Source: Mycolicibacterium smegmatis (GTDB taxonomy: Bacteria > Actinomycetota > Actinomycetes > Mycobacteriales > Mycobacteriaceae). From it: a DNA stretch of 32,000 nucleotides. The notes beneath the pieces are model-generated. The model saw nothing but the letters and a program-made list of their open reading frames with translations. It was not told where the DNA came from and did no database searches. Below are positions 743 to 19,220 of this stretch, piece by piece (within the stretch, counting starts at the first letter, position 1; every line of letters begins with the position of its first letter). Where the stretch lies: NCBI RefSeq assembly GCF_001457595.1, contig NZ_LN831039.1, positions 3,960,001 to 3,992,000 on the forward strand, read 5' to 3'. The position numbers and the translations under genes are program-made.

Positions 743-747
743 TGTCG

Positions 748-5204: not shown

Positions 5205-5786
5205 ATGAGCTCGACTAAGTACGCATGGGCGACGTCCGCCGTGCTTGCGGGGCTGCTCATCGGTGCGCAGATCGCCCCCGCCACGGCACTGGCCGATCCC
5301 CCGGTCGAACCCGCTGTCGACCCGGCGGCGCCACCCCAGGTGGAGGGACAGACGGGTCCGCTGCACAACGTCACCTACCGGGCCCGCATCGACGGGGTGT
5401 CGCGCAACGCGACCATCGCCTACAAGATCGACGACAGCAACGTCAACACCGCCGATCCGACGATGCTGCCGGGCCGCACGTTCGAGGCCACCGGTGTCGT
5501 GACCGACCCCCAACTCGCGGGGATGACCGTCCGTATCGACTGGCCGTACTCGGCCAACCTGCACTGCGAGATCCTTGTAGACGACCAGGTGATCGCGCAG
5601 GCCGACACGTTCGTCGCACCCCGGCTCACGCGGCCCAAGAACGATCCCGGCTACGGCAGCCTGCTGTGCGGCGCCAACCTCGCCGACGGCACCGGCAACG
5701 TCATCAACACCGGGCCCGTCGAGCCCGTCGAACCTGTGGCCCCGGCCGAGCCGCCGCCACCTCCCCCGGCCCAGAACGCGGCCTAG
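5205..5786 (+). CDS. Secreted protein of unknown function (Sec signal peptide, Pro-rich N- and C-terminal tails)
   Basis: The internal ATG at 5205 gives MSSTKYAWATSAVLAGLLIGAQIAPATALA/DPP, a classical signal peptide with an AxA cleavage site. The mature part has two Cys residues and ends PVEPVEPVAPAEPPPPPPAQNAA. The upstream 82 codons of the track ORF (4959-5204) are R/G-rich and overlap the DUF402 gene. Confidence 0.72.
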   Translation: MSSTKYAWATSAVLAGLLIGAQIAPATALADPPVEPAVDPAAPPQVEGQTGPLHNVTYRARIDGVSRNATIAYKIDDSNVNTADPTMLPGRTFEATGVVTDPQLAGMTVRIDWPYSANLHCEILVDDQVIAQADTFVAPRLTRPKNDPGYGSLLCGANLADGTGNVINTGPVEPVEPVAPAEPPPPPPAQNAA

Positions 5787-6721
5787 AACACCGACCAGCC
5801 GGCCAACCGCGCGAACTCCTCGATCGCGGCGACGCCACCTGCGGAGTTCCCGTCGTCGTCGAGCGGCGGGCTCCACACGCACACCGTGCCGTGACCGGGC
5901 ATCACGGCCAGCACGCCGCCGCCGATGCCACTCTTGGCGGGCAGCCCGATGCGGTACGCGATGTCGCCGGCCGCGCCGTACATCCCCGAGGTCAACAGCA
6001 CCGCGTTGACCCGGCGCACGCTGTCGTCGTCCAGGACGGTCCGCTCCCCGGTCCGGTCGGCGAGAAACAGTGCCGCGCGTGCGATCGTGCGCACCGACGC
6101 CGCGATCGCGCACTGTGCGAAGTACTGCGGCAGCACCCGGTCGATGTCGTTGACCAGCCTGCCGTGCTCGGCCAGGACGTGCGCGATGGCCGAATTGCGG
6201 TGGTCGGCTTCGCTTTCCGAGAGCGCCACCGCTGGGTCGGAGCGCACGGGAGCGTCCGGGTCACCCGCCTGCAGCACCTCGATCGTCGCGCCGACGGCAT
6301 CGCCGGCATGCGTCATGAGCCGGTCGGTGACGACGAGGGCGCCGGAGTTCACGAACGGATTGCGCGGCCGCCAGTGGTTGCGCTCCAGATCGGCCACCGA
6401 CCCGTACCCCGCGTCGGTGGGCACCCATCCCACGTCGGTCCAGACATCCGGTTCGTGCCGCAGCAGCGCGCACAGCGCGAACAGCTTGGACAGGCTCTGG
6501 ATGGAGAAGGCCGTGGACGCCTCGCCGATGCAGGCCTCGGCGCCGTCGACGGTGGCGACGGCCATCGCGAACCGCGTGGCGGGCACCGCGGCGAGTGCGG
6601 GTATCTGGCGGCTCACCATCCCGCGCAGCGCGGCGCGGCGGCCGCGCAACTCCGCCGCTCGCAGATACTCGTGCATCTGCTCGCCGGCCACCGGCGCAAA
6701 CGGCATACGCGTACCTGGCAA
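5783..6721 (-). CDS. glsA: Glutaminase (GlsA family, serine-dependent beta-lactamase fold)
   Basis: Contains the S-x-x-K motif (FSIQSLSKLFAL), plus NPFVNSGAL and LPAKSGIGGG, which are typical of glutaminase A. I prefer the TTG start at 6721 because SD GAGGAGG lies 5 nt upstream. Alternatives are TTG 6745 (longest ORF) and ATG 6706. Its stop overlaps the stop of the convergent secreted-protein gene (CTAG, 5783-5786). Confidence 0.85.
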   Translation of the reverse strand: MPGTRMPFAPVAGEQMHEYLRAAELRGRRAALRGMVSRQIPALAAVPATRFAMAVATVDGAEACIGEASTAFSIQSLSKLFALCALLRHEPDVWTDVGWVPTDAGYGSVADLERNHWRPRNPFVNSGALVVTDRLMTHAGDAVGATIEVLQAGDPDAPVRSDPAVALSESEADHRNSAIAHVLAEHGRLVNDIDRVLPQYFAQCAIAASVRTIARAALFLADRTGERTVLDDDSVRRVNAVLLTSGMYGAAGDIAYRIGLPAKSGIGGGVLAVMPGHGTVCVWSPPLDDDGNSAGGVAAIEEFARLAGWSVF

Positions 6722-6755
6722 GACAACCTCCTCGGGGAATGTCAAGAGTTTAGGC

Positions 6756-6777
6756 GAAAATATCCAGTCTTTAGACC
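6756..6777 (-). promoter_or_regulatory. Operator-like element copy A1 (GGTCTAAAGACTGGATATTTTC on the minus strand)
   Basis: 15/22 identical to copy C at 17719-17740. The 11-mer TTTAGACCAAA (6770-6780) is the exact reverse complement of TTTGGTCTAAA at 17716-17726. It contains the compact palindrome GTCT-TT-AGAC. Confidence 0.5.
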
Positions 6778-6838
6778 AAACCGCTGCGAGCCGAAAGATG
6801 CTCGTGTAAACGTTGTGTCACGCGTCGACAGTTTAGGT

Positions 6839-6860: not shown

Positions 6861-6899
6861 TTTTCGCTTCTACGCTCTCGACAACCGAATGAAAGGCAG

Positions 6900-8441
6900 G
6901 TGGCGATGGCAGTTGAATTCGACCAGGGCACGGGGGCGGGAAGTACTGCGCCCCGTGACAATTCGGCCACCCTGAAACGTGGTGCGATCGGTCTTGCCGG
7001 CGTCGTGTTCATGGTGGTGGCCTTCTCGGCGCCGATAACGGCGATGACCGGCAACCTGCCGGTGGCCGTGGGCTTCGGCAACGGACTCGGTGCGCCGGGC
7101 GGATTCCTCATCGCAACCGTCGTCCTGACCATCTTCAGCATCGGCTTCGTGGCGCTGGCCCGCCACATCACCGCGGCCGGGGCGTTCTACACGTTCGTCT
7201 CACGCGCGTGGTCACGAATTCCCGGCCTGGCCGCAGGTGTCATGCCGGCCTTCACCTACATGACCATGGAAGCCGGACTCGTCGGCATCTTCTCGGCGTT
7301 CGCCGATCAGGCCTTCTCGATGCAGTTCGGCATCGATCTGCCGTGGGAGGTCTACGCGGTGATCGGCCTGGTCGCCATCGCGGCGCTGTCGCACTTCGAC
7401 ATCTCGGTGGCAGCCAAGGTGCTCGGCGTGGTGCTGGTCGCCGAGATCATCATGCTGTCGATGACCGCGATCGCGGGCCTGGTCCACCACCCCGACGGCA
7501 TGAGCTTCACATCGCTGAACCCGGTGACCGCGCTGAGCGTCAACAACGTCGCAGGCGGCGTGGTCGGCCTCGGCCTGCTTATGGCGTTCTGGTCGTGGGT
7601 CGGATTCGAGTCGACGGCCATCTACGGCGAGGAGTCGAAGAACCCCAAGCGCATCGTGCCGCTGGCGACGATGATCGCGGTGATCGGTATCGGCGTGTTC
7701 TACACCTTCATCTCGTGGGGCGTCGTCGTCGGCAACGGACCCGACAAGGCGGTCGAACTCGCTTCCGGGCCTGCACCTTTCGACCTGCTGTACGTCCCGA
7801 CCGCGGAGTACCTCGGACCATGGGCGGTGACGGTGTTCGAGTGGCTGGTGGTCGGCGGATCGTTCGCCTGCGCACTGGCGATCCACAACTCGGCCGCGCG
7901 GTACCTGTTCGCGTTCGGACGCGACGGCCTGCTGTGGCACCGCCTCGGTGAGGCCCACCCGAGGCACAGGTCGCCCTGGGTGGCATCGCTGGCCCAGAGC
8001 GCCTTCGCCGCAGTGCTTCTGGTGGTCTGCTCACTGACCAAGTCGGATCCCTACGCCGACCTGTTCGTGCTGGTGGCCATCCTGGCGACACTTCTGCTGC
8101 TGATCGTGCAGACGATGTGCTCGGTCGCGACCGTCGTGTACTTCCACGTCAAGAAGCAGCACCCCGAGACGGCATCATGGTGGCGAACCCTATTGGCCCC
8201 CATCATCGGAGGCGCGGGCATGCTCTACGTCATCTACCTGATGACCTCGAACATGCAGGCCGCGGCCGGCACCGCGTCGGACACCTTGTTCTTCAAGTTG
8301 ATCCCGTACGCGGTGGTCGGACTGACCCTCGGGTCCATGCTGCTGGCGCTGTACTGGCGCAAGGCCCGGCCCGACCTCTACGACCGGATCGGGAGCACGA
8401 TCTTCGACGATCGCGAACCCGTGCGCGAGCCGGCGAACTGA
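6900..8441 (+). CDS. APC-superfamily amino acid (or amine) permease
   Basis: 513-aa ORF with about 12 hydrophobic segments and an APC-like N-terminus (LKRGAIGLAGVVFMVVAFSAPITAMTGNL). The start is either GTG 6900 or ATG 6906; AGG at 6898-6900 favours 6906. Confidence 0.85.
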   Translation: MAMAVEFDQGTGAGSTAPRDNSATLKRGAIGLAGVVFMVVAFSAPITAMTGNLPVAVGFGNGLGAPGGFLIATVVLTIFSIGFVALARHITAAGAFYTFVSRAWSRIPGLAAGVMPAFTYMTMEAGLVGIFSAFADQAFSMQFGIDLPWEVYAVIGLVAIAALSHFDISVAAKVLGVVLVAEIIMLSMTAIAGLVHHPDGMSFTSLNPVTALSVNNVAGGVVGLGLLMAFWSWVGFESTAIYGEESKNPKRIVPLATMIAVIGIGVFYTFISWGVVVGNGPDKAVELASGPAPFDLLYVPTAEYLGPWAVTVFEWLVVGGSFACALAIHNSAARYLFAFGRDGLLWHRLGEAHPRHRSPWVASLAQSAFAAVLLVVCSLTKSDPYADLFVLVAILATLLLLIVQTMCSVATVVYFHVKKQHPETASWWRTLLAPIIGGAGMLYVIYLMTSNMQAAAGTASDTLFFKLIPYAVVGLTLGSMLLALYWRKARPDLYDRIGSTIFDDREPVREPAN

Positions 8442-9252: not shown

Positions 9253-9343
9253 ATACCGGACCCCCTTCAAGTGTGCACAGGCTACCCCATATCCCCTGCT
9301 GAAGACGTATGCCTTGCCCAATAGACCAAAGAAAAAAATAAAA

Positions 9344-9365
9344 GTCCTAAAAACTTGACCTATAG
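9344..9365 (+). promoter_or_regulatory. Operator-like element copy B (GTCCTAAAAACTTGACCTATAG) overlapping a TTGACC -35-like hexamer
   Basis: 19 of 21 aligned positions (one 1-nt gap) are identical to copy C. The exact 9-mer GACCTATAG is shared (9357-9365 and 17732-17740). An extra half-site TAGACCAAA at 9322-9330 is identical to 6772-6780. Confidence 0.55.
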
Positions 9366-9425
9366 CCCTATTGCGTCGAAACTTGGTGGAGTTCAGCGCA
9401 GCTCACACTTCGAAGGGATCGTGGA

Positions 9426-10157
9426 TTGAGTAACAAGGTGATCGTGACGGGCGGGGCGGGCGTGATCGGTCAGGCGATCTGCCGTCGACTGCTGCAGAGC
9501 GACTACGTCCCGGTGGCGGCCGATCTCAAGCCCGCCGTGGACCAACTCGATCTGACGCAGGAGAACATGACCGGCGCGCTGAAGGTCGCGATGGACGTCT
9601 CGGACCGCGAGAGCGTGCAGAGCGCGGTGGACTCGGTGGTCGAGGACGGCGACACTCTTTACGGACTGGTCAATTGCGCTGGCATTCTTCGCGATTCGTT
9701 CCTCGGCGAGCTGGACGAGGCCAAGCTGGAGCTGATGTTCCAGGTGAACATCGCCGGCATGGCCCGGGTGACCGACGCGGTGGCACCGCATCTGCGTGAA
9801 GGGTCCGCGATCGTCAACATCGGCAGCCTCACCGGGCACTTCGGCCGTTTCCGCGGTGCCTCGGTGTACGGGGCGACCAAGGCCGGGATCGCCGCCTACA
9901 CCCGTTATCTGGCCGAGGAACTGGCCCCCCGCGGCATCCGCGTCAACAACATCGCCCCCGGCGTGATCCGGGCCCCGATGAGCCCGTCGATGGCCCGGGT
10001 GTCCGGCGGTGAGGAGATCAGCGCCAGTTACGCCATGCTCAAGCGCATCGGCGAACCCGAAGAGGTCGCCGAGGCCGTCGAATTCATGCTCTCACCGCGG
10101 GCGTCGTTCATCACCGCCCAGACCCTGCTCGTCGACGGCGGGGTGGTGGCCTGGTGA
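9426..10157 (+). CDS. Short-chain dehydrogenase/reductase (SDR 1)
   Basis: TTG start with SD GAAGGGA 7 nt upstream. Motifs: cofactor motif TGGAGVIG, NCAG, and catalytic S..YGATK. Confidence 0.85.
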   Translation: MSNKVIVTGGAGVIGQAICRRLLQSDYVPVAADLKPAVDQLDLTQENMTGALKVAMDVSDRESVQSAVDSVVEDGDTLYGLVNCAGILRDSFLGELDEAKLELMFQVNIAGMARVTDAVAPHLREGSAIVNIGSLTGHFGRFRGASVYGATKAGIAAYTRYLAEELAPRGIRVNNIAPGVIRAPMSPSMARVSGGEEISASYAMLKRIGEPEEVAEAVEFMLSPRASFITAQTLLVDGGVVAW

Positions 10158-11437
10158 CCACCGAGATCCACACCCCCACCGCCGCGACCGACGGGATCGA
10201 CGTCGAGGCGGCCAACGCCACCGCGTTCGCTCGCCTCGACGAGGCCGACCCGTGGGTGATCGACGTGCGCCCCGCCCGCGAGGTGCTCCCCGGCTACCGC
10301 GACAACGTGGTGCTGACCTCCGGGGCGCCGATGCCGTGGTCGGCCTACACCGGTGGGCAACGCGAAGCCCTCATCGGCGGCGCCCTGTTCGAAGGCCTGG
10401 CCGCCACCCGCGAGGAGGCCATCGCGAAGTTCGACGACGGCACCATCGAGGTCGGGGCGTGCCACGATTACGGCGCGGTCGGATCGCTCGCCGGGATCTA
10501 CACCGCCTCCATGCCGGTGTTCGTCGTGGAGAACCGCGCGCACGGCAACCTCGGGTTCTGCAACTTCTACGAAGGCAAAGAACCCCGCCGGCTGAACTAC
10601 GGCTGTTACGACGCCGGCGTCCACGAACGCCTCGAGCATGTCAACACCGTGCTGGCCCCGGTGGTCGGCGAGGCCATCCGCCGCCAGGGCGGCATCGCGC
10701 TCAAACCACTCATCGCCCGCGCCCTGCGGATGGGTGACGAGGTGCATTCCCGCAACGCCGCGGCCTCGATCCTGTTCAACCGCGAGATCCTGCCCGCGGT
10801 CCTCGACATGGTGGGCGAAGGTGTCGCCGGGGTGCGCGAGACCATGCTGCACCTGGCCGAGAACGACTACTTCTTCCTGCGTCTGTCCATGGCCGCGGCC
10901 AAGGCGTCGGCCGATGCCATGGTGACCCCGGGGTCGACGCTGGTGTCGGCGATGGCGTTCTCCTGTCGCGGGTTCGCCATCAAGCTCGCGGGCCTGGGCG
11001 ACCAGTGGTTCGAGGGGCCCCCGCCGATCCACCAGGGCAAGCTGTTCGCAGGCCACAGCGAAGACGAGATCACCTGGATGGGCGGGGAATCCCCGATCAC
11101 CGAGACCATCGGCCTCGGCGGGTTCGCCCAGGCGTGTGCCCTGTCGCTGCAGGAGTACCAGGGCGGACTGCCCGAGGTGATGATCGAGCGCAACCGCGAG
11201 ATGTACGCCATCACCCACGGCGAGAACAGCACCTACCGCATCCCGCTGTTCGCGTTCCGCGGCACCCCGACGGGCATCGACGCACGCAAGGTCCTCGACA
11301 CCGGCGTCCTGCCGGTCATGGACGTCGGCCTGGCCGGACGCGACGGCGGGCAGATCGGCGCGGGCGTCATCCGAGCGCCGCGTGAGTGCTTCGCCGACGC
11401 CATGGCCGAGCACACCCGTAGATTCGGACGACCATGA
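10154..11437 (+). CDS. DUF1116-family protein (YlbE/AllG-like), function unknown in this context
   Basis: 427-aa ORF. The GTG start overlaps the SDR1 stop (GTGA). Overall length and blocks such as GACHDYGAVGSLAGI, NFYEGKE, HSRNAAAS and GGESPITETIGLGGFA match my recollection of the YlbE family. This needs HMM confirmation. Confidence 0.65.
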   Translation: MTTEIHTPTAATDGIDVEAANATAFARLDEADPWVIDVRPAREVLPGYRDNVVLTSGAPMPWSAYTGGQREALIGGALFEGLAATREEAIAKFDDGTIEVGACHDYGAVGSLAGIYTASMPVFVVENRAHGNLGFCNFYEGKEPRRLNYGCYDAGVHERLEHVNTVLAPVVGEAIRRQGGIALKPLIARALRMGDEVHSRNAAASILFNREILPAVLDMVGEGVAGVRETMLHLAENDYFFLRLSMAAAKASADAMVTPGSTLVSAMAFSCRGFAIKLAGLGDQWFEGPPPIHQGKLFAGHSEDEITWMGGESPITETIGLGGFAQACALSLQEYQGGLPEVMIERNREMYAITHGENSTYRIPLFAFRGTPTGIDARKVLDTGVLPVMDVGLAGRDGGQIGAGVIRAPRECFADAMAEHTRRFGRP

Positions 11438-12228
11438 CCGTAGCCGCACAGACCGGACAAGCACCGACGAAGTCGCTCGCGTACACGTTCACCGGTGGCG
11501 ACGCCGTCGTCACCGGCGCAGCGTCGGGCATCGGTGCCGCCACGGCCGCGATGCTGATCTCGGCAGGTATCCGCACGATCCGCCTCGACATCCGCACACC
11601 CGAACCGGACCCTGGTTTCGGCGCAGACCTGCAGGTCTGCTGTGCCGCCGATGTCCGCGACCCGGATCTGCTCACCACGCTGCGTGGACAGGGCGCGCCC
11701 GTGGACACCGTGAGCTACGTGGTGAACTGCGCAGGCGTCATCGACGACACCGGATTCGCCGGTGTGAGTCGCGAGCACTGGCTGCGGTGCCTTGAGATCA
11801 ACCTGATGGGCGCCTACAACGTGCTCGACGCGTTCACCCCGGTGCTGCGGCAGAACCCACCGGCCGCGATCGTCAACGTCACCTCGATCGAGGCCGCCCG
11901 CGTCATCGCGCTGTCCAACCCCGATCCGACGCCGCAGTACGCCGCGTCCAAAGCCGGCCTGCGCATGCTGACCGAGACCAGCGCGCGGGCCCTGGCCGCC
12001 GACGGGATCCGCGTCAACAGCGTCGCGCCCGGATTCGTCGCGACGCCGATGGCCGCCGCGCACGGCAACACCGCGACCCTGCCGCCGTCGCTCGCACCGC
12101 GCGTGCCCGCGGGCCGATTCGCCCGGCCCGCCGAGATCGCCTGGGCCACCGCGTTCCTGCTGTGCGACCAGGCCACGTACATCACGGGTTCCGAACTGCG
12201 CGCCGACGGAGGATTTCAGCTGACATGA
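11434..12228 (+). CDS. Short-chain dehydrogenase/reductase (SDR 2)
   Basis: ATGA overlap with the DUF1116 gene. Motifs: TGAASGIG, NCAG, and catalytic S..YAASK. Confidence 0.85.
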   Translation: MTVAAQTGQAPTKSLAYTFTGGDAVVTGAASGIGAATAAMLISAGIRTIRLDIRTPEPDPGFGADLQVCCAADVRDPDLLTTLRGQGAPVDTVSYVVNCAGVIDDTGFAGVSREHWLRCLEINLMGAYNVLDAFTPVLRQNPPAAIVNVTSIEAARVIALSNPDPTPQYAASKAGLRMLTETSARALAADGIRVNSVAPGFVATPMAAAHGNTATLPPSLAPRVPAGRFARPAEIAWATAFLLCDQATYITGSELRADGGFQLT

Positions 12229-13295
12229 CGCGGACACCCGTCACCCGGAACCCGGTGGCCTACGAGCCGGCACTGGGCCGCAACGCGCGCACCGGCGACT
12301 GGCAGGAACTGGCGCGCGGCACGTTCCGCACCGCGATCGAACGCGTCGAGGCACAACAGTGGGAGGCCGCGGCGCAACTGGTCGAGGTGGCGGTGCTCGA
12401 AGCCGAGGAACTCAACGACGTCTACCAACGCTGGCCGGCCGCCACCATGCAGTGGATCCGCGACCACGATGTCGCTCAGGCCGACCTCGACCGTGCCCTC
12501 GCACGCCTCACCGCACTCATCGGAGACCAGGCCATGGCGGGGATCAACGCCGAGTGGCCCACGTTCACCGACGCGGTCGCGGTGGCCGCCCGCGCGTGCC
12601 GCGACCAGGACCCCGCGGCCGCCGGGCTGATCGAGACCGCCCGGCAGGCATGGCAGCAGATCCACGACCGTGCCGTCGACCGCGTCGCGGGCATCGTCGA
12701 CATCGCGGTCACGCTCGTCGGCGAACCAGCGCTCGGCGAGCTGTGGGATTTCCTCATGGCCGACTGGTACGAAATCCACGAGCGCCGTTACGCATTGGAC
12801 AACCAGCCGTGGAGCGAATCAGCACACCAGCTGATGATCGCGATCGTCGACGGTTTCCACGCACATCTGGCAGGCACCGGGCGCCAGGGCGACATCGAAC
12901 TCATCGAGGAGCCCGGGCGCACCGGATTCCGTTTCGCGCCATGCGGATCCGGTGGCCGGTCGCTCGACGCCCGCATCACCGACGGGGTACCCCGCTCCGG
13001 TGCACCGTTCGGTTTCGCCGTCACCACCGAACCACACGACTGGGCGTGGAACACCGTCGGCATCTGCTCGTACTGCGTGCACTGCTGCCAGCTCAACGAG
13101 GTCATGCCGATCGACCGGCTGGGCTACCCCACCCGCGTCATCGACCCGCCCACGTGGACACCGGATTCGCCGACCACATCCTGCACGTGGTGGGTGTACC
13201 ACGATCTCGCCGACATCCCCGACCACGTCTACCACCGCGTCGGGCGCGATCCCGCCCGCCGGCCGAGCCCGACCAGAAGGAGTGCCGATGGCTGA
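12225..13295 (+). CDS. Cys-rich protein of unknown function (356 aa)
   Basis: ATG at 12225 overlaps the SDR2 stop (ATGA). The N-terminal half is helical. The C-terminal half carries PCGSGG, CSYCVHCC and SCTWW cysteine motifs, which suggest a metal or Fe-S site. I recognise no family. The coding frame is supported by GC3 and by coupling on both sides. Confidence 0.7.
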   Translation: MTRTPVTRNPVAYEPALGRNARTGDWQELARGTFRTAIERVEAQQWEAAAQLVEVAVLEAEELNDVYQRWPAATMQWIRDHDVAQADLDRALARLTALIGDQAMAGINAEWPTFTDAVAVAARACRDQDPAAAGLIETARQAWQQIHDRAVDRVAGIVDIAVTLVGEPALGELWDFLMADWYEIHERRYALDNQPWSESAHQLMIAIVDGFHAHLAGTGRQGDIELIEEPGRTGFRFAPCGSGGRSLDARITDGVPRSGAPFGFAVTTEPHDWAWNTVGICSYCVHCCQLNEVMPIDRLGYPTRVIDPPTWTPDSPTTSCTWWVYHDLADIPDHVYHRVGRDPARRPSPTRRSADG

Positions 13296-14580
13296 CCACG
13301 TCGCGATGACGCAGCTCGAAGTCGCCGATTACGACCTCGGGCTGCGCGGCAAGCTGGTGCGCTCATCGAAGACGCACGGTGCGTCGGGCCTGGCGTTCTG
13401 CACCATCCTGTACGGCCTCTCGCTCATCGACGATGTCACCGACACGCCGTTCAGCAACGCCGCCAACGGCTATCCGGACGCCCAGCTGGTGCCCGACGAG
13501 ACCACCAGGGTCGCGCTGCCGTGGCGGCACGGCACCGACGCGGTGATCGCCGAACTCGTCGACGAGCAGGGCCGCCCGCTGGAGGTCTCGCCCCGCGCGG
13601 TGCTCGCCGGCCTCGCGGCCCGCTACGGCGAGCTGGGCCTGGCTCCCGTGCTGGGATACGAGTACGAGCTGTGGATCTTCCGCGACGGCGAGGGCACCTC
13701 ACCGCCGATCCTGGGTGGGAGACCCGCGCACGGCCGCACAGAGAACGCCTACAGCCTCACCCGGTGCGCCGAGATCAACGACATCGCAACAGAGTTCGTC
13801 AACCGGATGGACCAGATCGGCATCGAGGTCGAGATGTTCCACGCCGAACTGGGTCCCGGGTTCTTCGAGTTCACCCTCGCTCCCGAGACCGCGCTGCGGG
13901 CCACCGACAACGCCGCGCGGGCGCGGCAGTACCTGCGGGACCTGTGCGCCGAGCGCGGTCTGCACGCGAGCTTCATGGCCAAACCGTTCGCCGACAAGTC
14001 CGGTGCGGGCGGGCATGTGCACTCGAGTCTCACCCGTGACGGCAACAACGTGTTCTCCGACGGGGCGGGCGCGCTGTCGGCCGAGGGCAGCCGCTACCTG
14101 GCCGGACTGCTGGCCGGGATGGCCGACACGTCGCTCATGCTCAACCCACATGTCAACTCCTACAAGCGCATCGACCCTGAGATGTTCACACCGGCCCTGG
14201 CGAACTGGGGATATGACGACCGTGGCACCTCGGCCCGCGTGATCCTCCCCGATGCGAAGTCCGCCCGCGTCGAACACCGCCGCCCCGGCGCCGACGCCAG
14301 CCCCTACCTGGTCGCCGCGGCGCTGCTGGCCGCGGGTCTGCGCGGCCTGCAGGAGGAGTTGCCGCTGCCGGAACGGGACGCCGAACCGACCGAACTGCCA
14401 GGGGATCTGGCAGGCGCGCTGGCGCATTTCGAGAACTCGACCTGGCTACCCGATCTGCTCGGCAAGGCGTTCTGCACGTCGTACGCCGCGACACGGCGGG
14501 CCGAACTGCAGCGGTACGAGCAGTGGCTACGCACGACGATCACCGACTGGGAACTGCATCGACACCTGGAGCACCAATGA
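13288..14580 (+). CDS. Glutamine synthetase-like ATP-dependent ligase 1 (gamma-glutamyl-amine synthetase type)
   Basis: ATG at 13288 with SD GAAGGAG 5 nt upstream, and an 8-nt overlap with the preceding gene. GS catalytic motifs are present: YEYELWIF, FHAELGPGFFEF, GAGGHVHSS, NSYKRI, VEHRRPGADASPY. Confidence 0.85.
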   Translation: MADHVAMTQLEVADYDLGLRGKLVRSSKTHGASGLAFCTILYGLSLIDDVTDTPFSNAANGYPDAQLVPDETTRVALPWRHGTDAVIAELVDEQGRPLEVSPRAVLAGLAARYGELGLAPVLGYEYELWIFRDGEGTSPPILGGRPAHGRTENAYSLTRCAEINDIATEFVNRMDQIGIEVEMFHAELGPGFFEFTLAPETALRATDNAARARQYLRDLCAERGLHASFMAKPFADKSGAGGHVHSSLTRDGNNVFSDGAGALSAEGSRYLAGLLAGMADTSLMLNPHVNSYKRIDPEMFTPALANWGYDDRGTSARVILPDAKSARVEHRRPGADASPYLVAAALLAAGLRGLQEELPLPERDAEPTELPGDLAGALAHFENSTWLPDLLGKAFCTSYAATRRAELQRYEQWLRTTITDWELHRHLEHQ

Positions 14581-15956
14581 GCAGCACATCTGCACTTCTC
14601 GACCTCGACCAGTTCGAAAAGCTCGCCGCGGCAGGCGAGATCACCACGGTGATCTGCGCGGCGCCCGATCCGTACGGCCGCCTGGTGGGCAAGCGCCTGA
14701 CCATATCGGCCTTCCGGACGCTGGGCCTCGACGGCGGCGGCGTGAACGCCAGCAGCTTCATCTTCGCGGTCGACCTCGAGATGAACCCACTCGACCTCCC
14801 GGTGTCCAACGCCGCCAACGGCTGGGTGGACATCCGTCTGGTCCCGGATCTCTCGACGCTGCGGCGCGTGCCGTGGGAACCCACGGCGGCACTGGTGATC
14901 TGCGACGCCTACCACATGGATTCCGACGAGCCGCTGGCCGTCGCTCCGAGAACCATTCTGCGCCAACAGATCGACCGGGCCGCGCAGCAGGGTCTGCGGT
15001 TCAAGTTCGCATCCGAACTCGAGTTCTACCTGTCGTGCACCCCGCCGCGTCAGGCGTGGGACCTGGGCTATCAGAACCTCAAGATGATGTCGGACTACCG
15101 GTCGGACTACCAGATGATCCAGGCCGCGCGCGACGACTGGTTCATCGAGCGGATCCGCAACCAGATGCCCGAGTTCGGCGTACCCATCGAATCGTCGAAA
15201 CCCGAATGGGGACTGGGCCAGCAGGAGGTCACACTCGACTACTGCGACACCTTGGAGATGGCCGACCGCCACGTACTGTTCAAGTACGGCGTCAAGCAGT
15301 TGACCCACAGCGCCGATCTGACCGTGACGTTCATGGCGAAACCCAAGATCGACGAGGTCGGCTCGTCGTGCCACCTGCACGTCAGCATGTGGTCGACCGA
15401 CGACGACCAACCGCTGTGCTGGTGTCCCGAGCGCCGCGGCATGTCGGACCGCTTCGGCGCGTTCGTGGCCGGGCAGTTGCGTCACGCCATCGACATGAGC
15501 CTGATGTACGCCCCGACGGTCAACTCCTACAAGCGCTTCAAGCCCGATCAGTTCGCCGGGACCGCGATCGCGCTGGGGATGGACAACCGGTCGTGCGCGT
15601 TCCGGCTCGTGGGCAACGGACCGTCGTTCCGGGTGGAGAACCGCATCCCCGGTGCGGACGTGAATCCTTACTACGCGTACGCGGCGACCATTGCGGCCGG
15701 CCTCGACGGCGTCGAGGCGAACCTGCCCGCACCCGACATCTTCGACGGCAACGCCTGGACCCGCGAAGGTGTGGCGACCGTGCCGACATCGTTGCACCGC
15801 TCGCTGGACCTGTTCGCCGAGAGCAAGATGGCCCGAACCGCGTTCGGCGACGAGGTGTTCGACCATCTGCTGTCCTCGGCGCAGGGCGAGTTGGAGGCGT
15901 TCGACTCGCACACCGTGACCGACTGGGAGTCGCGCCGCTACTACGAACGCGTCTGA
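14577..15956 (+). CDS. Glutamine synthetase-like ATP-dependent ligase 2 (gamma-glutamyl-amine synthetase type)
   Basis: ATGA overlap with ligase 1. GS catalytic motifs are present: SELEFYL, KPEWGLGQQEV, GSSCHLHVS, NSYKRF, FRVENRIPGADVNPY. Confidence 0.85.
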   Translation: MSSTSALLDLDQFEKLAAAGEITTVICAAPDPYGRLVGKRLTISAFRTLGLDGGGVNASSFIFAVDLEMNPLDLPVSNAANGWVDIRLVPDLSTLRRVPWEPTAALVICDAYHMDSDEPLAVAPRTILRQQIDRAAQQGLRFKFASELEFYLSCTPPRQAWDLGYQNLKMMSDYRSDYQMIQAARDDWFIERIRNQMPEFGVPIESSKPEWGLGQQEVTLDYCDTLEMADRHVLFKYGVKQLTHSADLTVTFMAKPKIDEVGSSCHLHVSMWSTDDDQPLCWCPERRGMSDRFGAFVAGQLRHAIDMSLMYAPTVNSYKRFKPDQFAGTAIALGMDNRSCAFRLVGNGPSFRVENRIPGADVNPYYAYAATIAAGLDGVEANLPAPDIFDGNAWTREGVATVPTSLHRSLDLFAESKMARTAFGDEVFDHLLSSAQGELEAFDSHTVTDWESRRYYERV

Positions 15957-15999
15957 CCAGCAATTCGTTTCTCATTGCATTGATTCAAAGGAGCAAAAC

Positions 16000-16944
16000 A
16001 TGCCGATCGATCCCATTGCCCAGAAGATGCTCGACGACGCCAAGGCCTCCGGGCGCCCCAACGCGCACCTGCTGCCGGTGCCCACCGCGCGGGAGAACTT
16101 CGAGAACACGTTCGCGGCGCTGCAGAAGCCCGATGTGCACCGCGTCACCGACGTCGCCATCGAGACCCGCGACGGTGCGGTCATCCCGGGCCGGCTCTAC
16201 GTTCCCGCCGAGGGCGACGACCTGCCGTTGACGGTCTACTACCACGGTGGTGGCTGGCTGCTCGGCAGCGTCGACTCGCACGATGCGGCGACCCGACTGC
16301 TGGCCAAGGCCTCCGGCAGTGCGGTGCTTTCGGTGGGCTACCGCCTGGCCCCGGAGTCCCGCTTCCCCACCGCCGTCAACGACGCGATCGATGCCGTGGA
16401 ATGGGCGCGCGCGTTCGGCGCGACGCTCGGAGTCGACACCTCGCGCCTCGCGGTCGCGGGTGACAGCGCCGGTGGCAACCTGGCCGCCGCCGTCGCGCTG
16501 CACTACCGCGACGCCGGGGAACCGGTGATCCGCCACCAACTGCTGGTCTACCCGGTGACCACGACCGACCTGACCAAGGGCATGGACCCGGAGTACGACG
16601 GCGTGATGCTCGAACGTGATGAGCTGCAATGGCATCAGGACAACTACCTGCCGGGGCCCGATGCGGCGTCGGATCCCCGGGTCAACGTTCTCGGCGCGGA
16701 TCTGCACGGCCTGCCCGAGGCCACCGTCATCCTCGCCGAATGTGACCCGATTCGCCCCCAGGGCGAGCTCTACCTGCAGGCGCTGAAGGATGCGGGTGTG
16801 CCGGTGGAGAGCCACCTGACACCCGGTCAGGTGCACGGGTTCTTCGGCCTGGACGAGATCTTCCCGGCCGCCACCGCAGCCATGACATTCGCCGGGCAGC
16901 GCCTGGCGTCCGCGCTGGCCGTCGCCGGGCAGTCGACCCGATGA
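16000..16944 (+). CDS. Alpha/beta hydrolase fold-3 esterase/lipase (hormone-sensitive-lipase family)
   Basis: SD AAGGAG lies 6 nt upstream of the ATG. Motifs: oxyanion motif HGGGW, nucleophile elbow GDSAGG, and distal D (ECDP) and H (VHGF). Confidence 0.88.
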   Translation: MPIDPIAQKMLDDAKASGRPNAHLLPVPTARENFENTFAALQKPDVHRVTDVAIETRDGAVIPGRLYVPAEGDDLPLTVYYHGGGWLLGSVDSHDAATRLLAKASGSAVLSVGYRLAPESRFPTAVNDAIDAVEWARAFGATLGVDTSRLAVAGDSAGGNLAAAVALHYRDAGEPVIRHQLLVYPVTTTDLTKGMDPEYDGVMLERDELQWHQDNYLPGPDAASDPRVNVLGADLHGLPEATVILAECDPIRPQGELYLQALKDAGVPVESHLTPGQVHGFFGLDEIFPAATAAMTFAGQRLASALAVAGQSTR

Positions 16945-17669
16945 GCCGCACCGCGCTGGTCACCGGCGCCAACGGCGGCATCGGCTCGGCCACCGTCGCC
17001 CGGCTGGTCAAAAACGGCGTCGAGGTGATCGCGACCGATCTCGGCGAGCGCTCGGACACTGTGCCCGCCGACGCCGATTACGTGCCGTTCGATCTGCGCA
17101 GCGGTGATCCGCACGAATTGTTCGAACGGCTGGACGGCCGCGGACTGGACTACCTGGTCAACGCGGCAGGCGTGGCCCTGTTCGACCGCGACGGGTCGAT
17201 GCTCGACATCGACGAATCCATCTGGGACGTCACGCTCGGGGTGAACCTGCACGGGCTGCGCAAGGTCACCGCAGCTGCGGTGGAACACCTGCGCAGGGGC
17301 AGCGGCAAGAGCATCGTCAACGTGGCGAGCACGGCCGGTTTGCGGGGTATGGACTCCCCTCTGGACGCCTATCAGGTGAGCAAGGCCGCCGTGGTGTCGT
17401 TGACACGCGCGCTGGCCCTGCAGCTGGCGCCGGAAGGCATCCGCGCGAACACCGTGTGTCCCGGTGCGATCCTCACCCCCATGATCGACCACCTCTACGT
17501 CGAGAACCCGGCACGCAGGGTCGACATGGAGAACCGCACGCCGATGCGCCGCCTGGGTATGCCCGACGAGATCGCAAGTGCCATCGCATTTCTGCTGTCC
17601 GACGAGGCGTCGTTCGTCACGGCGACCGACCTGGTGGTCGACGGCGGCTGGACCGCCCAGATCAAGTAG
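16941..17669 (+). CDS. Short-chain dehydrogenase/reductase (SDR 3)
   Basis: ATGA overlap with the esterase gene. Motifs: TGANGGIG, NAAG, and catalytic S..YQVSK. Confidence 0.85.
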   Translation: MSRTALVTGANGGIGSATVARLVKNGVEVIATDLGERSDTVPADADYVPFDLRSGDPHELFERLDGRGLDYLVNAAGVALFDRDGSMLDIDESIWDVTLGVNLHGLRKVTAAAVEHLRRGSGKSIVNVASTAGLRGMDSPLDAYQVSKAAVVSLTRALALQLAPEGIRANTVCPGAILTPMIDHLYVENPARRVDMENRTPMRRLGMPDEIASAIAFLLSDEASFVTATDLVVDGGWTAQIK

Positions 17670-17718
17670 TCCCGAACGCCTCACGGGTGACGCCGCGGGC
17701 ATTGACAATCCCCTTTTT

Positions 17719-17740
17719 GGTCTAAATACTCGACCTATAG
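17719..17740 (+). promoter_or_regulatory. Operator-like element copy C (GGTCTAAATACTCGACCTATAG; GGTC-N9-GACC dyad) downstream of a TTGACA hexamer (17702-17707)
   Basis: This is the reference copy of the element that recurs at 6756-6777, 6839-6860 and 9344-9365. It lies 22 nt upstream of the monooxygenase ATG. Confidence 0.55.
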
Positions 17741-17762
17741 ATCTTATGAGACAGGAGTCAGG

Positions 17763-19220
17763 ATGAGCGGGTCACCACGGGTCGCAATCATCGGATCAGG
17801 ATTCAGCGGTATTGCCGCGGCGATTGCGCTGCGCAACAAGGGCATCGAAGACTTCGTCATCTTCGAGAAGGCGCCCGCACTGGGCGGGACCTGGTGGTAC
17901 AACCGTTATCCGGGCGCTGAGGTGGACCTGGAGTCCCACATCTACTCGTTCTCGTTCGAGCGCTACGACTGGACGCGCACCCACGCCGGCTGGGCAGAAC
18001 TGCAGGAGTACCTGAACCACGTCGCGGACAAATGGGACCTGCCGCGCCGGATCCGGTTCAACGAGAAGGTCGTCGACGTCCGCTGGTCGGATGCCGACCA
18101 GACCTACACCATCAGGACCGAATCCGGTGACGATCACGGGCAGTTCACCGCGGTCATCAGCGCCGTCGGCTTCCTCAACATCCCGCTGATCCCGCCGTTC
18201 GCGCGCGAGCAGAACGACTTCGAGGGCGCGATCTGCCACACGTCACGGTGGATCGACGGACTGGACATGACCGGCAAGAAGATCGGCGTGCTGGGCACCG
18301 GATCATCGGCCGTGCAGGTGGTCACCGAGGCCGAACGCGTCGGCGCCGAGGTCAAGATCTTCCAGATCGAGCCCAACTGGATCCTGCCGAAGGACAGTCG
18401 CGACTTCAGCCCGCTGGAACGGCGCCTCAACCGTCTGGCACCGGTCTACGCATACCGGCGGCTCAAGCTGTACCTCGGCTACGACCTGCGCCAGGTCCGC
18501 TCCAGCCACGCCAGGAGTGACGGCCGCACCAACCAGCGCAAGCACAGGGCCGCGGTGGCGTACCTGCAGCGCGAACTCGGCGACCGGCCGGACCTGCTCG
18601 AGCTCGCCACACCGTCGTTCCCGTACGAGGGCAGACGGACCGTCGTCAGCGACACCTACTACCAGGCGCTGCGCAGCCCCAAGGTGACGCTGGTCCCCCA
18701 CGCCGTCAAGGGACTGTCCCGCACCGGCGCCATCGACGCCAACGGCGACGAACACGAACTCGACATCATCGTGCTGGCAACTGGTTTCGACGCCGCGAAC
18801 TACCTGGGCAACTACCAGGTGCACGGCCGAAACGGAGTGGAACTGCACGACGCGTGGCAGGGCGAACCCGAGGCATTCCTGGGCATGATGGTGCCGAAGT
18901 TCCCGAACTTCTTCATCATGTACGGGCCCAACACCAACTCGATCCCGCTGGTGTCGTTCTACGAGGCGCAGGCAGCCTTCGCCGCGAGCCTGATCGCGCG
19001 GGCCACCAAGACCCGCGCGGGCAGCATCGAGGTCCGCCGGTCGGCGTTCGTCCTGTACAACGACTGGATCCAGGCCGCGCTCGCGAAAACCGTGTGGGCG
19101 CAGGTGCAGAACTACTTCCAGGCCGGCACGGGCCGCGTCGTGTCGCAGTGGCCGTTCGGCGCGACGCCCTACATCCTGGCGACAAAGCTGCTGCGCCGCA
19201 TCGCCGTACGGCTGTCCTGA
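17763..19220 (+). CDS. Type I Baeyer-Villiger (flavin-containing) monooxygenase, EthA-like
   Basis: SD AGGAG lies 5 nt upstream. Motifs: FAD motif GSGFSG, GGTWWYNRYPG, BVMO fingerprint FEGAICHTSRW (FxGxxxHxxxW), and NADPH motif GTGSSA. Confidence 0.85.
   Translation: MSGSPRVAIIGSGFSGIAAAIALRNKGIEDFVIFEKAPALGGTWWYNRYPGAEVDLESHIYSFSFERYDWTRTHAGWAELQEYLNHVADKWDLPRRIRFNEKVVDVRWSDADQTYTIRTESGDDHGQFTAVISAVGFLNIPLIPPFAREQNDFEGAICHTSRWIDGLDMTGKKIGVLGTGSSAVQVVTEAERVGAEVKIFQIEPNWILPKDSRDFSPLERRLNRLAPVYAYRRLKLYLGYDLRQVRSSHARSDGRTNQRKHRAAVAYLQRELGDRPDLLELATPSFPYEGRRTVVSDTYYQALRSPKVTLVPHAVKGLSRTGAIDANGDEHELDIIVLATGFDAANYLGNYQVHGRNGVELHDAWQGEPEAFLGMMVPKFPNFFIMYGPNTNSIPLVSFYEAQAAFAASLIARATKTRAGSIEVRRSAFVLYNDWIQAALAKTVWAQVQNYFQAGTGRVVSQWPFGATPYILATKLLRRIAVRLS

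Follow-up and report, generated by a model that had tools for sequence, protein, structure and literature searches.

A GntR-linked gene cluster of Mycolicibacterium smegmatis with a putative role in gamma-glutamylation-type catabolism

Within a 32,000-nucleotide stretch of DNA from Mycolicibacterium smegmatis (the window), a block of genes of about 13 kb (5783..19220) was recognized as an evolutionary unit by comparison of its sequence with those of other genomes, numerous soil bacteria among them having conserved it as a group. We consider, with a probability of about one half, that the block constitutes one substrate-inducible catabolic regulon, using gamma-glutamylation, Baeyer-Villiger monooxygenase (BVMO)/esterase and hydrolase steps, and that a small nitrogen compound is probably degraded by it after tagging with glutamate. 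The first-pass annotation had taken the cluster as uncharacterised and, in fact, no paper assigning a function to it was found in the searchable literature.

Organisation of the cluster

The cluster comprises the following genes:

5783..6706, minus strand: glsA, glutaminase A (MSMEG_3818), 307 aa in the public call, divergent from the permease gene; PF04960 1.4e-84, TIGR03814 above cutoff
6900..8441, plus strand: APC-family permease, 513 aa, putative importer; PF13520, PF00324
8518..9252, minus strand: GntR/FadR-subfamily regulator with FCD domain (gntR, MSMEG_3822); PF00392, PF07729
9426..10157, plus strand: SDR1, opening the overlapping six-gene chain; adh_short_C2 2e-53, TGxxxGxG and YxxxK motifs
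10154..11437, plus strand: AllG/YlbE-like DUF1116 protein, 427 aa; PF06545 8.8e-74
11434..12228, plus strand: SDR2; adh_short_C2 5.6e-45
12225..13295, plus strand: Cys/His-rich protein of an unmodelled family, 356 aa; no family match
13288..14580, plus strand: glutamine synthetase (GS)-like ligase 1 (MSMEG_3827); Gln-synt_C 1.5e-77
14577..15956, plus strand: GS-like ligase 2 (MSMEG_3828); Gln-synt_C 2.7e-83
16000..16944, plus strand: hormone-sensitive-lipase-family esterase; Abhydrolase_3 4.9e-67, HGGG and GDSAG motifs
16941..17669, plus strand: SDR3; adh_short_C2 3.8e-52
17763..19220, plus strand: type I BVMO, 485 aa; FMO-like and Pyr_redox_3 domains

The gene order and the start/stop overlaps described in the first-pass annotation were borne out by the sequence: the chain is joined by GTGA at 10154, ATGA at 11434 and 12225, 8 nt at 13288 and ATGA at 14577, and a further ATGA at 16941 links the esterase with SDR3. 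The boundaries of the chain were reproduced by independent gene calls in identical public M. smegmatis assemblies, where two minus-strand starts had to be moved, from 6745 to 6706 for glsA and from 9321 to 9252 for gntR, while the other boundaries stood. Such overlaps indicate co-translation; they are frequent in high-GC operons and unremarkable alone. The fingerprint FxGxxxHxxxW of type I BVMOs is present as FEGAICHTSRW, and the best PDB matches of this protein were CHMO, STMO and PAMO, all at about 2e-60. For the permease, the NCBIfam profile search gave no equivalog.

Conservation among genomes

The description of the block as a co-conserved and co-regulated unit was upheld by a neighbourhood survey of 64 loci together with a position weight matrix (PWM) for the predicted operator. 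In 35 of the 64 loci, which span Mycolicibacterium, Rhodococcus, Gordonia and Nocardioides, the full set of 11 genes, permease through BVMO, is found together, across versions that are near-colinear and actinobacterial; gntR is present in 53 loci, glsA in 22 and the esterase in 55, while 48-55 retain the esterase-SDR3-BVMO block. A Pseudonocardia copy is truncated by a contig end, and in two Rhodococcus versions an acetate-CoA ligase gene directly follows that of the BVMO, a clue in favour of a ketone module that comes from 2 loci. The block had also been called an island; it shows no compositional anomaly relative to its flanks, and it is the comparative context alone that supports the term, with uvrB and coaE flanking the cluster in just 6 of the 64 loci.

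Rearranged versions are carried by alphaproteobacteria, in which a Liv/HAAT-type ABC system is found instead of the APC permease, and the Rhodococcus copies include plasmids with flanking IS21. The genomic contexts of the cluster are varied, and the exchange of transporters is typical of catabolic cassettes. Transporters of the APC or Liv type would suit amino acids and amines equally, a point which counts against the proposal.

Predicted operator and regulator

The first-pass annotation had pointed to one operator-like element common to the intergenic regions. A PWM trained on 105 orthologous sites from other genomes agreed, locating exactly three strong sites in the window (O1, O2 and O3; maximum in shuffled sequence, 2.0), and the pattern GTMTTTAGACC had 3 matches there against 0.08 expected. 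The features outside the genes are:

6750..6780, minus strand: second operator-like copy, weak and degenerate, between glsA and the permease gene, forming a direct repeat (D19) with O1; 14.5 bits
6833..6863, minus strand: 31-bp operator-like O1 in the glsA/permease divergent promoter region; 44.6 bits
8458..8497, no strand assigned: perfect 15-bp GC-rich hairpin, candidate bidirectional terminator where the permease gene and gntR converge; fold -38.1 kcal/mol, z = -5.55
9341..9371, plus strand: operator-like O2 in the gntR/SDR1 divergent promoter region; 49.4 bits, the best of the window
17702..17746, plus strand: promoter-like site of the BVMO with overlapping operator-like O3 (17716-17746); 46.3 bits

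The gap between permease and gntR, which carries the hairpin, is not AT-rich, and the earlier description has been corrected in this respect. The 31-bp inverted repeat is kept before the same three units (glsA/permease, gntR/SDR1 and BVMO) in about 39 genomes: in 39 genomes the conserved block of O1 lies directly 5' of a -10-like hexamer (TAnnnT), O2 is kept in 36 of 39 orthologous regions, and TTGACA plus the O3 operator in 37 of 39 genomes. The BVMO site (TTGACA, 17 nt, AATACT at 17702-17730) is the sole sigma-70-like match across 5700-19300. The regulator itself has been listed as FadR-type with 267 aa (PMC2018728), and the start at 9321 is that of an older annotation. This regulon architecture, with its predicted operator, is a part of the proposal that the sequence displays. 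By binding to the conserved repeat overlapping the promoters, the GntR/FCD protein would repress three of them, namely that of glsA/permease, its own together with that of SDR1 to GS-like 2, esterase and SDR3, and that of the BVMO.

These data bear on whether two unrelated modules acting on different compounds have been brought together, one for gamma-glutamylation and nitrogen (permease, glsA, SDR1 to GS-like 2) and another for ketones or secondary alcohols (esterase, SDR3, BVMO), comparable with acetone/cyclohexanol oxidation or with the mymA operon. The BVMO does possess its own promoter-like site, Paeniglutamicibacter has an extra, separate BVMO-like/carboxylesterase pair with its own GntR and, counting against our proposal, a BVMO or esterase was not found within 10 kb of two reduced versions (L054 and L064). 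Nevertheless, we consider such a composite unlikely, since the operator at the BVMO promoter is that of the other units in the 37 genomes mentioned, the esterase begins 44 bp after GS-like 2 and neither an operator nor a promoter match lies in the interval, and the block has stayed contiguous through inter-genus transfers and on plasmids.

GS-like ligases

As anticipated in the first-pass annotation, the two GS-like proteins look like active ligases, judging from intact glutamate and ATP sites and a non-ammonium acceptor site. With the E. coli GlnA sequence as reference, residues E129, E131, E212, E220, H269, H271, R321, R339, R344, E357 and R359 are invariant in both; all the metal, ATP and glutamate ligands are invariant in 49 orthologues of GS-like 1, and the same pattern was found in 55 of GS-like 2. 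The ammonium-site residues have been lost in both, with Y179 deleted, S53 replaced by Ala and the flap residue E327 by Phe, or by Tyr or Trp in a few GS-like 1 orthologues. The proteins are 29% identical to each other and, therefore, are not redundant copies. The best PDB matches of GS-like 2 were 11zs and 5dm3, and all NCBIfam GS equivalogs remained far below cutoff for both proteins (GGputSyn scored 178-196 bits, the cutoff being 650).

That they are ordinary extra glutamine synthetases which, together with the glutaminase, serve nitrogen assimilation is suggested by their annotation as 'glutamine synthetase family protein' and their inclusion among the putative GS genes (PMC7816997). This is hardly credible given the (near-)invariant changes at E327, Y179 and S53, the low equivalog scores, and the location of the genes in a substrate-type GntR regulon. 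Moreover, the cluster is missing from the differentially expressed genes listed in two nitrogen-limitation studies, an absence that also counts against our own proposal. Alternatively, rather than glutamylating an amine, the enzymes might amidate, or activate in another way, the carboxylate group on an imported amino-acid-like compound (an analogue of glutamate), the cluster degrading a hydroxylated or keto amino acid. The amino-acid-type transporters (APC and Liv/HAAT), the low identity between the ligases and their remodelled acceptor pocket would fit such a function, but it appears improbable, as the glutamate-binding R321 and the phosphoryl-transfer residues are all invariant, and the co-occurrence of the ligases with a PuuD-type hydrolase and with the glutaminase fits the formation and removal of gamma-glutamyl groups.

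AllG-like and Cys/His-rich proteins

The genes for these two proteins are interleaved with SDR1 and SDR2 and, to our knowledge, neither protein has a recognised role in gamma-glutamylation pathways. PF06545 (DUF1116) is now named AllG, and the match spans model positions 1-215 of 215; in the PDB, the uncharacterised protein 3clq was matched at 1.7e-66. The AllG-like protein is the most conserved of the cluster (82-91% identity among near-colinear actinobacterial versions), its best 120 database matches being 84-100% identical. The Cys/His-rich protein had no Pfam, NCBIfam, PDB sequence or Foldseek match, although it has 587 relatives among 50%-identity representatives. It contains the motifs PCGSGGR, CSYCVHCC and CTWW, with 6 invariant Cys and 6 invariant His, and is predicted to fold as a helical bundle with a small Cys domain (AF2 pLDDT 81).

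The AllG match might indicate the handling of ureides or carbamoyl compounds, the protein being the core of an oxamate-carbamoyltransferase-like enzyme, as the oxamic transcarbamylase of E. coli has AllG among its subunits (PMC11326118). The E. coli activity, however, requires AllF (FdrA) together with AllH (DUF2877), with coupling to a carbamate kinase, and none of the three was found in M. smegmatis, either across the window or within 10 kb in the assemblies, nor annotated in the Rhodococcus plasmid version, which makes this function very improbable.

Hydrolases and proposed pathway

In 30 of the 64 loci the cluster includes a gene for a PuuD-type Peptidase_C26 gamma-glutamyl hydrolase, PuuD-like and GlsA being found side by side in Rhodococcus, Gordonia and Nocardioides. 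In the cluster comparison, M. smegmatis and its closest relatives lacked this gene, as well as a fourth SDR. The earlier idea that a GlsA-type glutaminase takes the place of PuuD/IpuF must thus be abandoned, the apparent replacement being a local gene loss, whereas the gamma-glutamylation reading becomes stronger than could be known from the M. smegmatis sequence. In the window, glsA and the permease share an operator-bearing promoter region.

The co-conservation of the genes and the intact active sites are observed; what we infer is the chemical steps and the class of substrate, which would most likely be an amine bearing, or acquiring, a secondary hydroxyl. After import of the substrate by the permease, its amino group would be masked through conversion into a gamma-glutamyl amide by one or both GS-like enzymes, at the expense of ATP and glutamate, the SDRs would oxidize the hydroxyl to a ketone, the BVMO would place oxygen beside it, and the resulting ester would be cut by the esterase; nitrogen and glutamate would then be recovered by the PuuD-type hydrolase (lost in M. 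smegmatis) and GlsA. If the ketone were alpha to the amide nitrogen, the BVMO and esterase steps would yield an unstable N-hydroxyalkyl-glutamine, decomposing into an aldehyde and glutamine. This collapse to glutamine itself would explain the presence of a true glutaminase. The AllG-like and Cys/His-rich proteins may carry out a further step on the same intermediates. Against the scheme it counts that about half of the genes are used, the second ligase, 2-3 SDRs and the AllG-like and Cys-rich proteins being left without a defined step.

The cluster could also be biosynthetic, forming a small gamma-glutamyl amide or ester (signal, osmolyte) with the permease acting as exporter. This would agree with the making of amides by GS-like ligases in natural-product pathways and with the very strong conservation of the AllG-like protein. 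We regard a biosynthetic role as quite improbable, since two gamma-glutamyl/glutamine amide hydrolases with an esterase and a BVMO, a repressor-type regulator with its operator over the promoters, uptake systems swapped between phyla, and carriage on catabolic-type Rhodococcus plasmids all fit degradation.

Comparison with known systems

The length of the AllG-like protein (427 aa vs 419 aa) and its full domain recall the AllF-AllG-AllH system of E. coli, from which the cluster differs in its other neighbours and in lacking AllF, AllH and carbamate kinase. We know of no demonstrated function for a lone AllG. The adjoining SDR, type I BVMO and esterase resemble the ChnA/B/C, AcmA/B and M. tuberculosis mymA modules, in which a secondary alcohol is converted to a ketone, then to an ester or lactone, and hydrolysed. 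Those modules are not known to be linked to a GS-like ligase, glutaminase or PuuD-type enzyme, whereas the BVMO module of the cluster shares its operator with nitrogen genes. A literature search found no gamma-glutamylation pathway including a BVMO, which counts against the proposal.

Precedents exist among actinobacteria, where gamma-glutamylation is used for polyamines by GlnA2/GlnA3 of Streptomyces coelicolor (PMC5403932, PMC8998196) and for an amino alcohol in its GlnA4 ethanolamine pathway (SCO1610-1615; PMC6529630), the GS-like gene likewise having genes for dehydrogenases, a hydrolase and a repressor as neighbours. The predicted GlnA4 route, which employs a formylglutamate-amidohydrolase-type enzyme as well as an aldehyde dehydrogenase, runs from alcohol to aldehyde to acid, while the cluster has no aldehyde dehydrogenase and follows a ketone, BVMO and esterase logic.

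The versions with the Peptidase_C26 gene are like the E. coli Puu system (PuuA, PuuB/PuuC, PuuD) in combining an ATP-dependent GS-like ligase with such a hydrolase, of the class I amidotransferase type, under substrate-type regulation, and in the placing of oxidation genes between those for ligation and hydrolysis; the M. smegmatis cluster departs from Puu in having no PuuD-type gene. The same resemblance holds for the isopropylamine (Ipu) pathway of Pseudomonas (IpuC, IpuD, IpuF). Unlike Puu and Ipu, the cluster has two divergent ligases, and 3-4 SDRs, a BVMO and an esterase stand where those pathways have an oxidase plus aldehyde dehydrogenase, or a P450; furthermore, the cluster contains a glutaminase, the AllG-like protein and a novel Cys-rich protein. 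It would represent a real, new and uncharacterised variation on gamma-glutamylation catabolism.

Organization of the gene cluster

The block at 5783-19220 comprises the following genes, in map order:

glsA: glutaminase (Pfam PF04960)
permease: APC family
gntR: regulator with GntR and FCD domains (PF00392 and PF07729)
SDR1: first of the three SDRs in the window
AllG-like gene: 427-aa protein of PF06545, once DUF1116 and today named AllG
SDR2: second SDR
Cys-rich gene, 12225-13295, plus strand: 356-aa Cys/His-rich protein without any family match
GS1: GS-like ligase 1 (MSMEG_3827), Gln-synt_C
GS2: GS-like ligase 2 (MSMEG_3828), Gln-synt_C
esterase: hormone-sensitive-lipase (HSL) type, Abhydrolase_3 (4.9e-67)
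SDR3: third SDR
BVMO: predicted type I Baeyer-Villiger monooxygenase, matching CHMO, STMO and PAMO at about 2e-60

The proposed reading frames translate to clean proteins, and the start/stop overlaps read in the first-pass annotation (GTGA at 10154; ATGA at 11434, 12225, 14577 and 16941; 8 nt at 13288) are present, with the same boundaries along the chain in the gene calls of five public assemblies; these calls corrected the starts of glsA and gntR to 6706 and 9252. The cluster is flanked in M. smegmatis by uvrB/DUF402 on one side and by coaE/rpsA on the other, coaE (MSMEG_3831, a locus tag anchored from a paper) starting 22 bp past the BVMO stop codon (19220-19242). The 267-aa FadR-type GntR protein is MSMEG_3822 (PMC2018728), the DUF1116 protein shows 100% identity to the database entry 'YlbE family protein [Mycolicibacterium smegmatis]', and the exact sequence of the Cys-rich protein is encoded in chromosomes of about 7 Mb, e.g. 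CP027541.1. Between the DUF402 gene and glsA lies a 193-aa ORF (5205-5786), which ends where glsA ends, is called in five of five M. smegmatis assemblies and gave no match in Pfam.

Operator and regulation

The sequence GTMTTTAGACC occurs three times in the window, with 0.08 occurrences expected. When the three orthologous regions, between gntR and SDR1, between SDR3 and BVMO and 5' of the permease, were taken from 39 other genomes, each was found to contain a shared element of about 31 bp, with the consensus AAAGAnCTAAAwACwwGACCwATAGnnCTTT and inverted arms (AAAGnnCTA / TAGnnCTTT). The element stands at three promoters, with conservation across about 39 genomes. Scoring with a PWM derived from 105 orthologous operator sites gave 44.6-49.4 bits for the three sites of the window (9341-9371, 17716-17746 and 6833-6863) and picked out a weak fourth site at 6750-6780, while the maximum over 20 shuffles, used as control, was 2.0 bits. 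The shared operator-like element proposed earlier is thus present and defines a regulon. The permease/gntR gap has no copy; between these convergent genes lies a perfect 15-bp GC-rich hairpin (8458-8497, -38 kcal/mol, z = -5.55), likely a bidirectional terminator.

With the operator at three sites, the cluster falls into three units on one operator, namely glsA/permease, gntR/SDR1...SDR3 and BVMO. This common operator weakens the alternative in which two independent modules merely travel together, which we consider unlikely. The copy 5' of the BVMO overlaps the -10 hexamer of TTGACA-17-AATACT, the only sigma-70-like promoter match in 5700-19300, and this is the geometry expected of a repressor. 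The position of its gene points to MSMEG_3822 as the regulator acting on the operator, and the features of a GntR/FadR-subfamily repressor can be recognized in a winged-helix GntR domain, an FCD domain and an inverted repeat as predicted operator.

Distribution and mobility

Two peptide patterns taken from the Cys-rich protein were searched for in one genome per species, which yielded 62 loci; all window proteins were then searched by tblastn against the surveyed loci (L numbers denote loci of cluster or Cys-family genes in other genomes). The colinear order permease-gntR-SDR1-AllG-SDR2-Cys-GS1-GS2-esterase-SDR3-BVMO recurs in many Mycolicibacterium, in Rhodococcus koreensis, Gordonia, Pseudonocardia (truncated by the contig), Nocardioides and a number of MAGs from actinobacteria. 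The full set of 11 genes was recovered from 35 of 64 loci, and contig ends interrupt several of the others; co-conservation, the object of the proposed neighbourhood survey, is indeed found. Conservation is strongest in the AllG-like protein, with 82-91% identity across near-colinear actinobacterial versions, the other proteins typically showing 55-80%. Rearranged versions occur in Paeniglutamicibacter, Gaiellales-like MAGs and alphaproteobacteria, the last having a Liv/HAAT-type ABC system in place of the APC permease.

Flanks of uvrB and coaE are seen at 6 loci only, those of the window and its close relatives. Beyond them, the cluster is located on three Rhodococcus plasmids, two of which were noted for the Cys-rich gene; the 361-kb plasmid of R. 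pyridinivorans SB3094 carries it complete (L071; NC_023144.1, 225427-248416), adjoining IS21 (istA/istB). The block is an evolutionary unit, operator-linked and horizontally mobile. Its description as an island holds by comparative context only, as base composition is no different from that of the flanks and no tRNA or integrase was found adjoining the block. The nearest tRNA, tRNA-Cys (GCA) at 747-818 on the minus strand, is far off and is not an insertion-site candidate.

Some further arrangements were observed. In several divergent versions (L045, L047, L048 and L051, at about 700-3800, and L041:1927-5200), two extra genes lie directly upstream of the permease, one FMO/BVMO-like, with about 30% identity to the window BVMO, and the other a third GS-like gene, with about 35% identity; some of these versions are without the terminal BVMO. 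In Paeniglutamicibacter (L040), the partners of the BVMO-like gene are instead a carboxylesterase and a second GntR regulator. Two Rhodococcus loci, L034 and L035 (Rhodococcus sp. WS4 and R. wratislaviensis), were set aside as uninformative: they appear to be decayed fragments in which only the GS2-like and Cys-rich genes are left, with a BVMO about 8 kb off; the L035 remnant adjoins IS110 and DDE transposases.

Glutamine synthetase-like ligases

Orthologues of GS1 (49) and GS2 (55) were aligned to E. coli GlnA, the reference sequence having been checked by its motifs. In this alignment, E129, E131, E212, E220, H269, H271, R321, R339, R344, E357 and R359, that is, all the metal, ATP/phosphate and glutamate ligands of glutamine synthetase (GS), are invariant in both proteins, while the ammonium site is altered: at the flap position, E327 gives way to an invariant Phe in GS2 and to Phe, Tyr or Trp in GS1, there is a deletion at Y179, and Ala stands in place of S53. 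Both proteins also score far below all cutoffs of the NCBIfam GS and gamma-glutamylputrescine synthetase equivalogs (169 and 205 bits for TIGR00653, cutoff 429; 182 and 217 bits for TIGR03105, cutoff 470). Given these ammonium-site and flap residues and equivalog scores, an identity as authentic glutamine synthetase (GlnA, EC 6.3.1.2) was rejected. The earlier proposal that they are ligases fares well, as with eleven ligands invariant and E327 changed to Phe they look active, with a pocket for something other than ammonium. The same residues and cutoffs speak against plain nitrogen assimilation as the role of the cluster, as does the absence of its genes from the differentially expressed genes listed in two nitrogen-limitation data sets, and we find this explanation scarcely credible. 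That the ligases act on an amino-acid-like substrate and not on an amine is, in our estimation, quite unlikely.

GS1 and GS2 are only 29% identical and both are kept in 58 of 64 loci, so they are non-redundant, representing either two specificities or a hetero-oligomer. The closest solved relatives of GS2 are 11zs (7e-94) and 5dm3 (8e-76), and that of GS1 is 5dm3 (2e-40). We take 5dm3 to be the protein of Chromohalobacter salexigens that has been linked with a predicted route of ethanolamine glutamylation. A route of this kind is mentioned in PMC6529630. An electron microscopy map was considered as evidence for GS2 expression and rejected: the data-availability statement of the shotgun-EM study PMC8244302 labels the D6 glutamine synthetase map EMD-11599 as MSMEG_3828, whereas its own LC-MS/MS table gives A0R079, 'Glutamine synthetase 1', 53.6 kDa. 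This entry is more consistent with GlnA1, and the MSMEG_3828 locus tag looks like a mislabel.

Hydrolases and the reduced M. smegmatis version

Compared with M. smegmatis, the cluster annotated on the Rhodococcus plasmid contains three further genes: next to glsA, one for a 'gamma-glutamyl-gamma-aminobutyrate hydrolase family protein'; between permease and gntR, a fourth SDR; and directly downstream of the BVMO, an acetate-CoA ligase. The first, a PuuD-like gene (Peptidase_C26, 4.8e-53; 98 bits against the NCBIfam PuuD cutoff of 266), was found in 30 of 64 loci; in most Mycolicibacterium it closely follows the BVMO, and in Rhodococcus, Gordonia and Nocardioides it lies beside glsA (L024:17326-18012 and L071:2648-3472 were compared with the window). 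The fourth SDR occurs in 32 loci and the acetate-CoA ligase in only 2. All three genes are absent in M. smegmatis and its nearest relatives, whose cluster is thus a reduced version. Puu/Ipu-type pathways are characterised by the pairing of a GS-like ligase and a PuuD-type hydrolase, and finding this pairing in the orthologous loci strengthens the gamma-glutamylation reading. The idea that GlsA substitutes for PuuD has, in turn, to be abandoned: both hydrolases coexist in many versions, so they presumably do different jobs.

Monooxygenase and esterase

The BVMO carries the Rossmann motifs GSGFSG and GTGSSA and the fingerprint FxGxxxHxxxW (as FEGAICHTSRW), and matches CHMO, STMO and PAMO at 2e-60 to 8e-53, although with 485 aa it is shorter than these enzymes (about 540 aa). 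These features are those of type I Baeyer-Villiger monooxygenases, the activity being predicted. The esterase shows YYHGGGW, AGDSAGG, CDPIR and VHGF, which supply the HGGG and GDSAG motifs and the putative catalytic Asp and His of the hormone-sensitive-lipase family; against NCBIfam LipP1 it scores 306 bits (cutoff 350).

The AllG-like protein

This protein matches the PF06545 model over its full length, and also PDB 3clq, an uncharacterised entry. In E. coli, AllG depends on AllF and AllH for its function, all three subunits being required, and acts alongside a carbamate kinase (PMC11326118). In the window, Pfam found only the AllG domain, without AllF (FdrA), AllH (DUF2877) or carbamate kinase; none of these families occurs within 10 kb on either side in five M. 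smegmatis assemblies, nor is any annotated in the Rhodococcus plasmid cluster. An identity as the oxamic transcarbamylase AllFGH was consequently rejected, and an OXTCase-like ureide metabolism, suggested by AllG but lacking the AllF and AllH that define it, is highly improbable. An AF2 model built on a shallow alignment, its sequences being 84-89% identical, reached a pLDDT of 41 and was set aside.

The Cys/His-rich family

No match to the Cys-rich protein was obtained in Pfam or NCBIfam, a profile search against PDB sequences returned only noise (E >= 0.2), and Foldseek of its AF2 model (pLDDT 81) against the PDB gave nothing at E <= 0.001. In the predicted structure, a long bundle of helices leads into a small beta/Cys domain. 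In 13 diverse members, C240 (PCGSGGR), C281, C284, C287 and C288 (CSYCVHCC) and C320 (CTWW) are invariant, as are six His and several Asp/Glu, which suggests a metal or Fe-S site.

An exhaustive HMM search yielded 587 clusters of the family at 50% identity, many of them a short form of about 250 aa. Pfam and NCBIfam recognised no domain of the family in 17 remote relatives, both short and longer forms, among which there were two apparent read-through fusions to neighbour genes, one to a GS and one to a CoA-transferase III. One short-form context, seen twice (L068:7136-10909 and L073:6188-9905), is a four-gene cassette encoding a protein without Pfam match, the Cys-family protein (about 245 aa), a 460-aa isomerase-like protein whose C-terminus faintly matches L-arabinose isomerase, and an SDR. 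The cassette adjoins a gene of the GH106 rhamnosidase family and possibly represents an uncharacterised system of its own for sugars or polyols; hhalign found no relation between AllG and the isomerase-like partner (probability 0.1). Another, seen three times (L070, L072 and L075), comprises acetoin-dehydrogenase-like genes (E1 and E2, with E3 and an SDR/alcohol dehydrogenase in R. jostii RHA1 pRHL3; L072, 11564-30046), an AMP-ligase and an acyl-CoA dehydrogenase. Further contexts are SDR-Cys-P450, with overlapping Cys-family and P450 genes, and gamma-glutamyltranspeptidase-Cys-SDR adjoining a luciferase-like monooxygenase. As an SDR or alcohol dehydrogenase is a neighbour in most of these contexts, the family seems to be tied to alcohol/ketone chemistry.

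Proposed pathway

One operator-linked mobile unit thus brings together apparently active ligases with a non-ammonium pocket, putative gamma-glutamyl and glutamine hydrolases, and an SDR, a BVMO and an esterase with intact motifs. In the general mechanism that we favour, the substrate would be imported and its amino group gamma-glutamylated, an SDR would oxidize a secondary alcohol to the ketone, the ketone would undergo Baeyer-Villiger oxygenation followed by ester cleavage, and glutamate and nitrogen would be released through PuuD-like hydrolase and GlsA. The probability of this catabolic scheme is put at about 0.5, confidence being limited by the fact that it offers no step for the second ligase, the extra SDRs, the AllG-like protein or the Cys-rich protein. 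A biosynthetic cluster is very unlikely. The acetate-CoA ligase of two Rhodococcus versions would, speculatively, fit a methyl ketone. As substrates, 1-amino-2-propanol, hydroxylated diamines and aminocyclitols were considered, none being preferred on present evidence.

A more specific and distinctly doubtful proposal is that the cluster, AllG-like and Cys-rich proteins included, encodes a previously unknown removal of amino groups, a 'Baeyer-Villiger deamination'. Here a gamma-glutamylated alpha-amino ketone would be oxygenated on its nitrogen-bearing side and, provided that the ketone stands alpha to the amide nitrogen, opening of the ester by the esterase would yield a carbinolamide (N-hydroxyalkyl-glutamine), which would collapse to an aldehyde and glutamine, the substrate nitrogen leaving as glutamine. 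Such a release would give a specific role to GlsA, a true glutaminase in the regulon, and the lone AllG-like protein and the Cys/His-rich protein, probably metal- or Fe-S-binding, might form a new enzyme preparing or rearranging the gamma-glutamylated intermediate.

Significance and relation to known systems

M. smegmatis is the standard mycobacterial model and is genetically tractable, so the cluster is directly testable, its conserved operator being a ready reporter element for inducer screening. Five 'extra glutamine synthetases' are listed for this organism, none with an assigned function, and MSMEG_3827 and MSMEG_3828 are entered solely as 'putative glutamine synthetase-encoding genes' (PMC7816997); two of the five are now placed in a defined, portable, operator-controlled regulon. 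In the searchable literature, subscription titles aside, no paper was found assigning the cluster a function or combining glutamylation with a BVMO; its MSMEG locus tags appear there in listings without function, and no paper treats DUF1116 together with glutamine synthetase. The view of the cluster as uncharacterised therefore stands. The identity of the substrate would add a gamma-glutamylation branch recruiting Baeyer-Villiger chemistry, and would provide the DUF1116/AllG protein with its first functional context without AllF and AllH, and likewise the Cys family, several hundred 50%-identity clusters without Pfam, NCBIfam or structural match. If the deamination were true, both families would gain a first function outside oxalurate cleavage. 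Compared with the systems described, the cluster is a variation on the known gamma-glutamylation catabolic theme, and what is new is the unprecedented enzyme set, together with the two function-less families at its core.
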